The notes under the pieces were generated by a model. The model was not told where the DNA came from. It worked only from the letters and a program-made list of their open reading frames with translations, and ran no database searches. Positions 2,312-63,444 of a DNA stretch of 64,000 bases are shown here, piece after piece. The position numbers and the translations under genes are program-made. This stretch comes from Octopus vulgaris (taxonomy: Eukaryota): positions 93,558,001-93,622,000 of the forward strand of contig OX597824.1 of NCBI GenBank assembly GCA_951406725.2. The letters are read 5' to 3'. The stretch's first letter is position 1; every line of letters starts with the position of its first letter.

Positions 2312-2358
<47 letters not shown>

Positions 2359-2438
2359 TCCCGGGTTGAGTCGGGGTTAACCACAGTCAATAAGGTACTC
2401 AATACATAGCAGAGTAAATTAATTTATTTTATAGAAGG

Positions 2439-2489
2439 AGTTTCTACAGGACTAGAACTGTTTCATTCAAAAGAAATCATCAGGAAGCT
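2439..2489 (-). ncRNA. Minus-strand copy of the same hammerhead motif (other hairpin arm)
   Basis: Mirror of 2575-2625; the single arm mismatch disrupts stem I (GAAACU instead of GAAGCU). Confidence 0.55.
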
Positions 2490-2574
2490 AGTAGACAAGA
2501 GTTGTTTTGGCATTTATACATTTATACATTATACCTGCCTAAATGTATAAATGCCAAAACAACTCTTGTCTACT

Positions 2575-2625
2575 AGCTTCCTGATGATTTCTTTTGAATG
2601 AAACAGTTCTAGTCCTGTAGAAGCT
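2575..2625 (+). ncRNA. Type-I hammerhead ribozyme motif
   Basis: AGCUUC-CUGAUGA-UUUC UUUU GAAU-GAAA-CAG UUCUAGUC CUG-UA-GAAGCU: 6-bp stem I, intact core, stem III, GUA triplet; stem II is weak. Confidence 0.7.
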
Positions 2626-2636
2626 CCTTCTATAAA

Positions 2637-2716
<80 letters not shown>

Positions 2717-20959: not shown

Positions 20960-21590
20960 GGCGGTGAGCTGGCAGCATCGTTAAGACGCCGAGCGAGATG
21001 CTAAACGTCACTTTGTCTGTCTTGATGTTCTGAGTTCAAATTCTGCCGAGGTCGCATTTGCCTTTCATTCTTTCGGAGTCGATTTTAAATAAGTAGAAGT
21101 TACGCATGGGGTCGACGCAGTCGACTTAATCCCTTTGAGGAGGCACAATGGCCCAGTGGTTAGGGCAGCGGACTCGCGGTCGTAGGATCGCGGTTTCGAT
21201 CCCCAGACCGGGCGTTGTGAGTGTTTATTGAGCGAAAACACCTAAAGCTCCACGAGGCAACGGCAGGGGGTGATGGCAATCCCTGCTGTACTCTTTCACC
21301 ACAACTTTCTCTCACTCTTACTTCCTGTTACTGTTGTACCTGTATTTCAAAGGGACGGCCTTGTCACTCTCTGTGTCACGCTGAATATCCCCGAGAACTA
21401 CGTTAAGGGTACACGTGTCTGTGGAGTGCTCAGCCACTTACACGTTAATTTCACGAGCAGGCTGTTCCGTTGATTCGGATCAACCGGAACCCTCGTCGTC
21501 GTAACCGACAGAGTGCTTCCTCTTAATCCCTTTATCTATCCTTGTTTGTCCCCTCTATATTTAGCTCCCTAGTGGGCAACAAAGAAATAA
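20960..21590 (+). mobile_element. SINE family C interrupted by a family A SINE
   Basis: Head GGCGGTGAGCTGGCAG at 20960; the body resumes after 21533. Confidence 0.85.
21137..21521 (+). mobile_element. SINE family A, full length, tail type 2, 12-bp TSD
   Basis: TSD CTTAATCCCTTT at 21125-21136 and 21522-21533; near-identical to 63062-63444. Confidence 0.92.
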
Positions 21591-26512: not shown

Positions 26513-26928
26513 GTTATGGGTTTTTCTTCTTCTTTCAAATTTGCTTCCATTTCTTGCCGAGTGTCTTCCCGACTCCTAGGGCAAAGAAACTCATAGTATA
26601 CATTGGTAGGCCATTAGACTAAACTCACTAGTTCGTTATTTTTTTTTTTTTTGATAGGAATAAAGTTAAATTAAAATACATGGGTAGTAATAGTTCTCAC
26701 ATCGACAATGCTCTTTTCAATACGTGTGATGTACCAGTTAAGACAATCTTTTGCACTTCTTGCAGGGATGGTAAGCCAGGGATCATTCTCATATAATTTT
26801 CGGCTCCCTTCTTCATCATTCCTAGTACTCCTACGATCACTGGTATTGTAACCGCCTTGAGATGCCACATTTTCTCAATTTCAATGAGTAGGTCTTTATA
26901 TTTTCTGAGCTTGTCAAATTCTTTCGCC
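26513..26928 (-). mobile_element. 5'-truncated R4/Dong-clade non-LTR retrotransposon inserted in (TAA)n
   Basis: Flanked directly by (TTA)n at 26446-26512 and 26929-~27075; carries an endonuclease C-terminus and 3' UTR. Confidence 0.85.
26697..26927 (-). pseudogene. C-terminal fragment of the restriction-like endonuclease of an R4/Dong-type ORF
   Basis: Uninterrupted frame AKEFDKLRKYKDLLIEIEKMWHLKAVTIPVIVGVLGMMKKGAENYMRMIPGLPSLQEVQKIVLTGTSHVLKRALSM*, matching the K..KY.DL, P.(I/V)G.LG and QK..L.GT.H.L motifs. Confidence 0.85.
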
Positions 26929-26992
<64 letters not shown>

Positions 26993-27001
26993 TACTATTA
27001 C

Positions 27002-27058
<57 letters not shown>

Positions 27059-27342
27059 TATTATCGTTATTATTATCATTGTTGTTGTTATAATTACTAT
27101 TTTACAAATTAAATATAAACACTGCACTGACGACACAGTGTTAATTACATATATACGTATATTCACGTATACACACATACACATGCATACGTAATGTGTA
27201 TATAAATATGTGTGTGTGTGCGTATGTATGTATATATGTGTATTTATATATAGCATTACATCTATGTTGAGGTGAAATTCCCAAATAGAGTTTACGTGTG
27301 TTCGTGCGTGTAAGTGTGTGTATATGGGTATGTGTGTGTGAA

Positions 27343-37018: not shown

Positions 37019-37390
37019 GTGGAGGCACAATGGCCCAGTGGACTCACGGACGGAGGCTCGCGGTTTCGATTCCCAGACCGGGTGTTGTGTGTGTTTATTG
37101 AGCGAAAACACCTGAAGCTCCACGAGGCTCTGGCAGGGGGTGGTGGCGACCCCTGTTGTACTCTTTCGCCCCAACTTTCTCTCACTCTTTCTTCCTGTTT
37201 CTTGTCCCCGAATTCCTACGCAGCCGCTGAGCCTAGATGCGCATTCATCCATCCGTCGATGCTCTCGATGTCGGGGGGGGGGGGGGTGATCTGCTTTCTC
37301 TTCTGCGCGGGTCTTACAAATAGCAAAGGACCACGTTTCGGACTTCTCCCACCAGGGACGAAAACCGCTTCGCTCAACAGACAAAGAAAC
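37019..37390 (+). mobile_element. SINE family A, tail type 4
   Basis: Family A head and body up to CTCACTCTTTCTTCCTGTTTCT, then an unrelated tail. Confidence 0.8.
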
Positions 37391-56066: not shown

Positions 56067-56208
56067 AACTTATAAATAAGGGCAAACGAAAACATTTCTA
56101 ATGCCAAATATGCCGAAATTAGACACATTATCCATAACCATGAGCAATGTGTATAATTTCGGCATATTTGGCATTAGAAATTTTTTCGTGTGCCCTTATT
56201 TATAAGTT
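56067..56208. repeat. 63-bp inverted repeat (3 mismatches, 16-nt loop) between (TA)n tracts
   Basis: Arms 56067-56129 and 56146-56208. Confidence 0.93.
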
Positions 56209-63061: not shown

Positions 63062-63444
63062 GTGGGGGCGCATGGCCCAGTGGTTAGGGCAGCGGACTCG
63101 CGGTCGTAGGATCGCGGTTTCGATTCCCAGACTGGGCGTTGTGAGTGTTTGTTGAGCGAAAACACCTAAAGCTCCACGAGGCTCTGGCAGGGGATGGTGG
63201 TGACCCCTGCTGTACTCTTTCACCACAACTTTCTCTCACTCTTACTTCCTGTTTCTGTTGTACCTGTATTTCAAAGGGACGGCCTTGTCACTCTCTGTGT
63301 CACGCTGAATATCCCCGAGAACTACGTTAAGGGTACACGTGTCTGTTGAGTGCTCAGCCACTTACACGTTAATTTCGCGAGCAGGCTGTTCCGTTGATTC
63401 GGATCAACCGGAACCCTCGTCGTCGAAACCGACGGAGTGCTTCC
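63062..63444 (+). mobile_element. SINE family A, full length, tail type 2
   Basis: Near-identical to 21137-21521; putative TSD ATTTTGTGT at 63051-63059 and 63445-63453. Confidence 0.92.

Follow-up and report, generated by a model that had tools for sequence, protein, structure and literature searches.

A 103-bp inverted repeat in the genome of Octopus vulgaris that holds a hammerhead ribozyme motif together with its antisense copy raises the question of how a ribozyme came to be paired with its own complement, and whether RNA read from the locus could still cleave itself. The first-pass annotation of the window (the whole 64-kb stretch analysed here) pictured a ribozyme sequestered in a hairpin, with RNA editing as a factor that could affect its cleavage. 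We are confident that the locus arose when a young Penelope-like element inserted its hammerhead-bearing end in truncated, head-to-head form, likely through two-strand priming in (TA)n and joining of the cDNAs, and that the ribozyme, as predicted, is locked in the duplex. It is an ordinary stump of a Hydra-like Penelope element and an insertion of a known kind; as one of many such stumps, the locus itself is of little weight.

The hairpin and its parent element

The coordinates and pairing first reported for the hairpin were confirmed: 2422-2524 and 2540-2642 are the arms of a 103-bp duplex whose single mismatch is T2441/G2623 (in the plus-strand transcript, a G-U wobble), and the loop, 2525-2539, has 15 nt. 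Its predicted fold of -171.3 kcal/mol (z = -31.6) was equalled in stability by none of 200 shuffled sequences, and outside simple repeats it is the only hairpin of the window with perfect arms of more than 30 bp and a loop shorter than 40 nt. The parts of the insertion are listed in Table 1.

Table 1. Parts of the insertion in window coordinates, and loci of the A-to-G subfamily elsewhere in the same genome
Feature	Position	Strand	Basis
(TA)n target tract, left flank	2315..2356		sequence; (TA)n at nearly every listed sister insertion end
65-nt tail, 3' end of the minus-strand pLTR copy	2357..2421	-	sister copies; in tandem copies continues into the ORF
Left arm, 5'-truncated pLTR end in minus-strand sense; no break between it and the tail	2422..2524	-	comparison with L061
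Second type-I hammerhead copy, with one stem I pair lost to a G-to-A variant at 2441	2439..2489	-	
Inversion junction; last 8 nt of the left arm repeated imperfectly, with slippage	2525..2532		sequence
Right arm, tail-less inverted pLTR end, stops at the family's fixed tail-less boundary	2533..2642	+	
Type-I hammerhead, family consensus sequence; predicted cut after A2619; loop III with palindrome CUAG	2575..2625	+	
8-bp local hairpin over the cleavage site and the stem I 3' strand, independent of the antisense arm	2616..2634	+	predicted
(TA)n target tract, right flank	2643..2711		sequence
A-to-G subfamily loci L081, L082, L086, L131-L134	C27:16.18M, C8:16.09M, C11:66.79M, C9:106.23M, C12:3.50M, C9:56.98M, C1:212.92M		

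The (TA)n tracts between which the repeat was said to lie are present, but on the left an element-derived tail stands between tract and arm. The tail continues the minus-strand copy and is 65 nt long here and 69 nt long in older copies. The right arm, in turn, runs on into the 'loop', which is made of 7 nt of element sequence and the slipped repeat; element sequence can be read from 2533, or from 2529 with one mismatch. The whole unit is thus composed of the tail with 103 nt on the minus strand, the junction and, on the plus strand, ~110 nt of a copy that has no tail; the copies are oriented 5' end to 5' end. The junction pattern occurs once in the whole genome (2.8 Gb), and a target-site duplication is unreadable because both flanks are (TA)n.

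A search of the same 2.8-Gb genome with 2357-2642 as query gave 88 matches among the 40 scored of 1365 candidates. At 24 of the 40 scored places, the window copy being one of them, its 84-nt end is found with 100% identity, and this young age upholds the earlier view that the event was recent. The near identity of the arms, on which that view had been based, was rejected as a clock, since three further loci have the single mismatch too (4 of 135 arm copies in all); the mismatch is therefore likely to be a variant carried by the template rather than decay. It does fall within stem I, as had been noted, but the hammerhead that it damages is the minus-strand copy in the left arm and not the plus-strand one.

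Tail and left arm match an endonuclease-bearing copy, L061, over 168 nt at 98.8%. This copy and three others (L063, L066 and L070) have an ORF upstream of the pLTR end, both reading in one direction. L051 and L052, as tandem copies, have the pLTR in front of the ORF as well; in longer insertions the pLTR end lies ~3 kb downstream of the ORF. The parent measures ~5.2 kb, with ~2.1 kb of ORF and ~3.0 kb from there to the end of the tail. The ORF, read as 524 + 225 residues in two frames in L052 and as 568 residues in L041, contains RWR, DKT and YRDD motifs, a CxCx5C linker, a GIY-YIG-like motif, CxxC and CxH. It has 1456 relatives of ~700 aa at E <= 0.001; four relatives were scanned, yielding one RVT_1 match below the cut-off and one GIY-YIG match above it. 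The family's own ORF matched no RT or GIY-YIG model in Pfam and no solved structure in a PDB sequence search; a weak VtrA_C match in Pfam, below the cut-off, was set aside.

The motifs of the parent ORF and the domain matches of its relatives support the Penelope-like origin that the annotation had inferred from general knowledge of these elements. Its two premises hold here as well: a pLTR with the hammerhead flanks the ORF in sister copies, and the inverted terminal duplication takes the form of head-to-head, 5'-truncated pLTR copies with a tail on one side. By its sequence, the family is a high-copy, young Penelope-like element with Hydra-clade protein motifs. The Naiad clade is excluded by the C-terminal endonuclease; the Neptune clade was considered, and the motifs fit Hydra. 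MITEs and fold-back DNA transposons have symmetric, fixed terminal inverted repeats tied to a transposase. We rejected such an origin in view of the one-sided tail and of arms of variable length that run into the RT-EN ORF.

Several other repeats were recorded in the window. A SINE-like repeat with a tRNA-like head, according to our own reading of the sequence, occurs at 1511-1765, 21139-21300, 37020-37171 and 63063-63224, with 30 further matches in the fetched loci; ARAGORN found no tRNA gene in the 64-kb window. A short repeat island between (TA)n tracts (2003-2175, 15 matches in the fetched loci) ends in a tandem 7-mer, and a dispersed repeat directly to the right of the insertion (2718-2880) has six further copies in the window and 61 matches in the fetched loci. 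A smaller perfect inverted repeat with 28-bp arms and a 32-nt loop lies at 56094-56181. The non-repetitive end of an open frame at 26697-27101 (minus strand) may resemble the C-terminal endonuclease region of a non-LTR retroelement.

Head-to-head insertions and an A-to-G subfamily

The rarity that had been implied for the caged hairpin is not borne out, the architecture being the family's routine insertion product. The loci fetched, which were the best-scoring matches of chosen queries, several of them containing the tail (so that tail-less pairs are under-sampled and two-tailed pairs favoured), contain 65 distinct head-to-head pairs with ~30 nt to 8 kb between the end motifs; one tail is present in 64 pairs, none in 1 and two in 0. 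An earlier set of 52 pairs gave 50, 2 and 0, respectively. Of 29 clearly unequal insertions, 17 carry the tail on the shorter arm and 12 on the longer one (35 others have similar arms and 1 is tail-less). Arms differ at 1.3 sites within an insertion versus 4.0 between insertions (44 pairs; 0 of 5000 permutations), so both arms would usually copy RNA of one source. The arms of L005 differ in their subfamily variants, which suggests that two RNAs served as templates for this insertion.

Among the shortest insertions are five perfect palindromes with the self-complementary AGCT at the join; in another six the join falls within ~6 nt of it. In a tail-seeded sample of 30 loci the commonest form is a smaller hairpin that turns on AGCT at the 5' end of stem I. 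The smallest common insertion, two hammerheads head-to-head on AGCT, was seen at L144, L145, L148, L154, L155, L159-L161, L169 and L170. At L003, L021 and L079 the flanks outside the (TA)n tracts form an inverted repeat with one another, as if the insertion were centred in a larger palindrome.

Seven insertions on six contigs share a pLTR variant that sets them apart as a subfamily. Misaligned microsatellites confounded a first genome-wide substitution count (A>G 2249, T>C 965), which was replaced by a count on non-repetitive segments. In five such segments the shared derived changes number 30, every one of them A-to-G in the sense direction; they affect 30 of 109 adenosines upstream versus 0 of 63 in the last 280 nt, which hold the ribozyme (Fisher p = 3e-7, for edits that stem from one or two RNAs and are not independent events). 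Eleven control copies have 0-4 such changes. The pLTR of the subfamily has ~45-50 sense-strand A-to-G changes in total, including 11-13 in a duplicated segment: the copies of a 100-nt tandem duplication are edited differently, at 4 of 28 versus 11-13 of ~22 adenosines. Where both arms of a subfamily insertion reach the edited zone, each arm is changed on its own sense strand. No ORF was found within the 9.9 kb fetched for the seven insertions. The window copy, with a tail variant absent from the subfamily and no A-to-G change, is not a member.

The neighbour preference of the changed adenosines is mixed. A 3' G is enriched (12/23 vs 18/86, p = 0.007), while depletion of a 5' G is not significant (4/23 vs 26/86, p = 0.30); invertebrate editing, according to PMC5625713, is characterized by strong 5' G depletion and a 3' A preference. 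The pattern is thus only partly ADAR-like and unlike that reported for invertebrates. The simplest reading of the shared changes would be that one hyper-edited RNA was integrated and then multiplied.

The preferred account of the window insertion invokes two priming events. The element's endonuclease would cut both strands in (TA)n; one strand would prime at the end of the tail and the other 65 nt further in, and both cDNAs would stop after ~100-170 nt, with slippage and microhomology then joining them. For identical cDNAs, annealing is restricted to palindromes and chance microhomology, in agreement with the junctions observed. The anole element was reported to behave similarly in vitro, starting at two sites, one on each side of the tail, and extending both strands of the target (PMC11167929). 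Inverted 5'-truncated copies with a one-sided tail and palindromic junctions are described in PMC8557442 and PMC3846280, and hammerhead pairs on opposite strands, 100-700 bp apart, in PMC4209133 for metazoan Penelope-like elements (PLEs).

The published explanations of the inverted copies differ: PMC8557442 gives endonuclease resolution of an intermediate, and PMC3846280 self-priming on an antisense template, as read from the palindromic junctions. An inversion for which a single nascent cDNA folded back, or self-priming took place on antisense RNA, and in which endonuclease trimming of one end left the tail, is in our view unlikely. It would account for the palindromic junctions and for the likeness of the arms within an insertion; however, in 17 of the 29 unequal insertions the tail is on the short arm, while the long, sometimes ORF-bearing arm has none, and with the tail on either arm copy-back of a single cDNA could neither add the absent tail nor lengthen the second arm beyond the first. 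The differing arms of L005 also speak against it, as does the A-to-G subfamily, which, if made by ADAR, was copied from sense RNA. The self-priming model of PMC3846280 is weakened; in compound form, the published explanations would still be compatible with these counts. An assembly or library artefact in the form of a fold-back chimera deserves hardly any credit. Among the contigs listed from eight runs none spans the junction, as an artefact would have it, but a chimera of this kind does not agree with the one-sided tail, with an arm mismatch common to other loci or with a slipped junction unique in the genome; in addition, there are 65 sister pairs with varied junctions, and contigs of three other DNA or unlabelled runs contain shorter fold-back joints of the same family.

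Two-strand priming thus remains our reading of the locus. More tentatively, and with somewhat less than even confidence, we suggest that the family records both double priming at each insertion, which would yield the hairpins, and ADAR as a heritable mutagen: one hyper-edited RNA would have founded at least seven insertions, its 280-nt end being unedited since that end is required intact, or is shielded, for copying. The one-tail rule and the edited subfamily with its spared end are family-level observations and not properties of this locus. The strict rule, with the tail on either arm, gives genomic support to two-site, two-strand priming, so far shown in vitro for one element. If ADAR made the subfamily, edited sense RNA was the source of a germ-line copy that then multiplied, a point relevant to the strand that Penelope elements use as template.

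The hammerhead and its duplex

The right arm contains a complete type-I hammerhead motif with a predicted cut after 2619, as the annotation proposed. Stem I (2575-2580/2620-2625) is followed by CUGAUGA (2581-2587), stem II (2589-2591/2596-2598, with U-U at 10.1/11.1), GAA (2600-2602), stem III (2603-2606/2615-2618) and the triplet GUA, whose A17 is 2619. The core required by type I (C3 U4 G5 A6 N7 G8 A9, G12 A13 A14, A15.1-U16.1 and the NUH triplet) is present. A pairing-constrained descriptor with three helices of 6, 3 and 4 bp, stem I closing the ends, picked out a single site in the 64-kb window, with no match in any of 30 shuffled versions. Stem II is indeed weak, as stated earlier: its 3 bp lack a G-C closing pair, and the U-U is found in the window and in the family. 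The Rfam check proposed at the outset gave no match to hammerhead models, neither at the gathering score nor among 42 hits at E up to 10; microRNA hits on the hairpin, all below the gathering score, reflect a generic hairpin and were discarded.

That the arm 'folds as' a hammerhead holds for the motif and not for the predicted ground state, since the hammerhead accounts for 4% of the ensemble of the isolated 51-mer. The minimum free energy of this 51-mer is the same as that of shuffled sequences (z = 0.04). For the minus-strand copy, with a predicted cut between 2445 and 2444, the probability of the hammerhead fold is 0.0001. Stem III is weak, and the palindrome in its loop is predicted to favour a dimer over the monomer (-12.8 kcal/mol for an intermolecular stem III vs -1.4 for the hairpin).

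Across 129 arms the 12 core positions have 3 substitutions, while N7 varies between U and A in 10 arms and loop II varies too. A near-invariant core with variable N7 and loop II fits function in the source elements; the 3' flank is conserved like the core (3/1161 substitutions), therefore the conservation is not specific to the ribozyme, and a Fisher test of core versus flank deals with inherited variants that are not independent events. The inherited variants are at N7, in loop II and at the outer base of stem I, and no compensatory pair was seen in the helices of this young family. The hammerhead may be retained because it matters in the source elements or because it hitch-hikes in them; there it would probably work as a dimer or with help from protein.

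In two of 30 short insertions (L147 and L156) the arms end at or within 2 nt of the predicted cut. These could be copies of cleaved RNA or, possibly, products of stem I microhomology, and hint weakly at in vivo cleavage. Hammerhead-like motifs that are unrelated and have other stems were seen at L140:3216 (C11, ~6.7 kb to the left of the window), L091:836, L122:531 and L069:2037; they likely belong to other Penelope families.

The annotation expected a read-through transcript from either strand to face two competing folds, a self-cleaving ribozyme and a long duplex, with editing as a possible control. The duplex stands, being near-perfect over 103 bp; competition and control do not. Since the copies are head-to-head, the antisense arm is transcribed first on either strand, and the hammerhead therefore emerges already paired: in each transcript prefix tested, pairing had taken up 29-30 of the 30 nt most recently made, and the cost of imposing the hammerhead fold is 84 kcal/mol. 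A transcript that starts in the loop would mostly misfold (stem I probability 0.005-0.14) because the 8-bp hairpin covers the cut site. All folding figures are nearest-neighbour predictions without proteins, Mg2+ or tertiary contacts.

Could ADAR editing still tip the balance between duplex and hammerhead, and so make the locus a switch? The arms form a perfect duplex of the ADAR type, the family was likely edited in the germ line, as judged from the A-to-G changes of the seven sister insertions, and A2611 reads G at ~5-12% of depth in contigs of three of four putative RNA runs, a change not listed in four DNA or unlabelled runs (5% threshold). The A2611 signal is a hint drawn from runs of guessed type with all copies pooled in the contigs and no matched DNA, and the position sits in loop III and not in the core. 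More directly, none of 16 simulated editing regimes (10-100% of adenosines, on both arms or the antisense arm only, scored as G or unpairable) reversed the fold; the smallest gap, 9.9 kcal/mol, went with loss of all six core and cleavage adenosines, which at 30% editing were intact in 3-4 of 40 trials. The edited subfamily itself has no changed adenosine in the end that holds the ribozyme. With the energy gap and the order of synthesis also opposed to it, an editing-controlled switch is highly improbable. A literature search with most subscription papers and supplements outside its scope found neither ADAR control of a natural hammerhead nor ADAR edits fixed in retrotransposon copies; the bioRxiv text of PMC11702581 does not mention ADAR, editing, A-to-G or A-to-I.

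For the duplex-locked ribozyme, then, the prediction is that read-through RNA would be a plain 103-bp dsRNA, a passive substrate of ADAR or Dicer without self-cleavage. No promoter, host gene or conservation was identified for the locus. As a class, head-to-head stumps would supply ready-made perfect dsRNA in the octopus genome; RNA editing in octopus is heavy according to PMC5625713.

Comparison with known systems

Insertion units of EN+ PLEs (Arkhipova et al. 2013, PMC3846280; Craig et al. 2021, PMC8557442) share with this family the head-to-head pLTR copies, the tail at one end, the palindromes at junctions and the microsatellite target. The differences are in extent: the tail measures 65-69 nt here versus the published 30-40, the copy in the window retains only the last 168 + 110 nt, and the parent has a microsatellite-rich 3' region of 3 kb.

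Among C-terminal EN+ PLEs the Hydra clade (PMC8557442, section 11) has the same RW(R/K) and DKT motifs, CxCx5C linker, CxxC and CxH round conserved E and N, canonical hammerhead and insertion into (TA)n, although its members are generally shorter than 3 kb, compared with ~5.2 kb for the parent here. The proposed placement in this clade fits the motifs and the relatives. The family may already be named in the supplementary list of PMC8557442.

The minimal or atypical type-I hammerheads known from metazoan PLEs (Cervera and de la Pena 2014, PMC4209133) agree with the present one in topology, in a 6-bp stem I, in a palindromic loop III suited to dimers, in occurring as opposite-strand pairs and in low expected activity of the monomer; they are reported to cleave poorly alone. 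In the octopus family stem II is short and without the typical G10.1-C11.1 pair, stem III is longer (4 bp) and sequence variability is low.

The closest parallel for priming is PAc Poseidon of Anolis (Frangieh et al. 2024, PMC11167929), with two RT start sites bracketing the tail, both strands of an AT-rich target cut and extended, and a hammerhead that is dispensable for insertion and inactive without protein. PAc belongs to another clade and its ORF starts inside the hammerhead, whereas the octopus element has its first Met ~150 nt beyond the cut in the 3' direction.

Hyper-edited palindromic repeats, such as those of frog Harbinger and lizard Penelope (Porath et al. 2017, PMC5625713), are likewise self-contained, near-perfect duplexes and passive ADAR targets; their edits are found in RNA, whereas the sister subfamily described here carries them in DNA. 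The non-LTR retrozyme (10.64898/2026.07.22.740005), finally, is built of head-to-tail tandem type-I hammerhead units, unlike the single, head-to-head copies of the octopus element.
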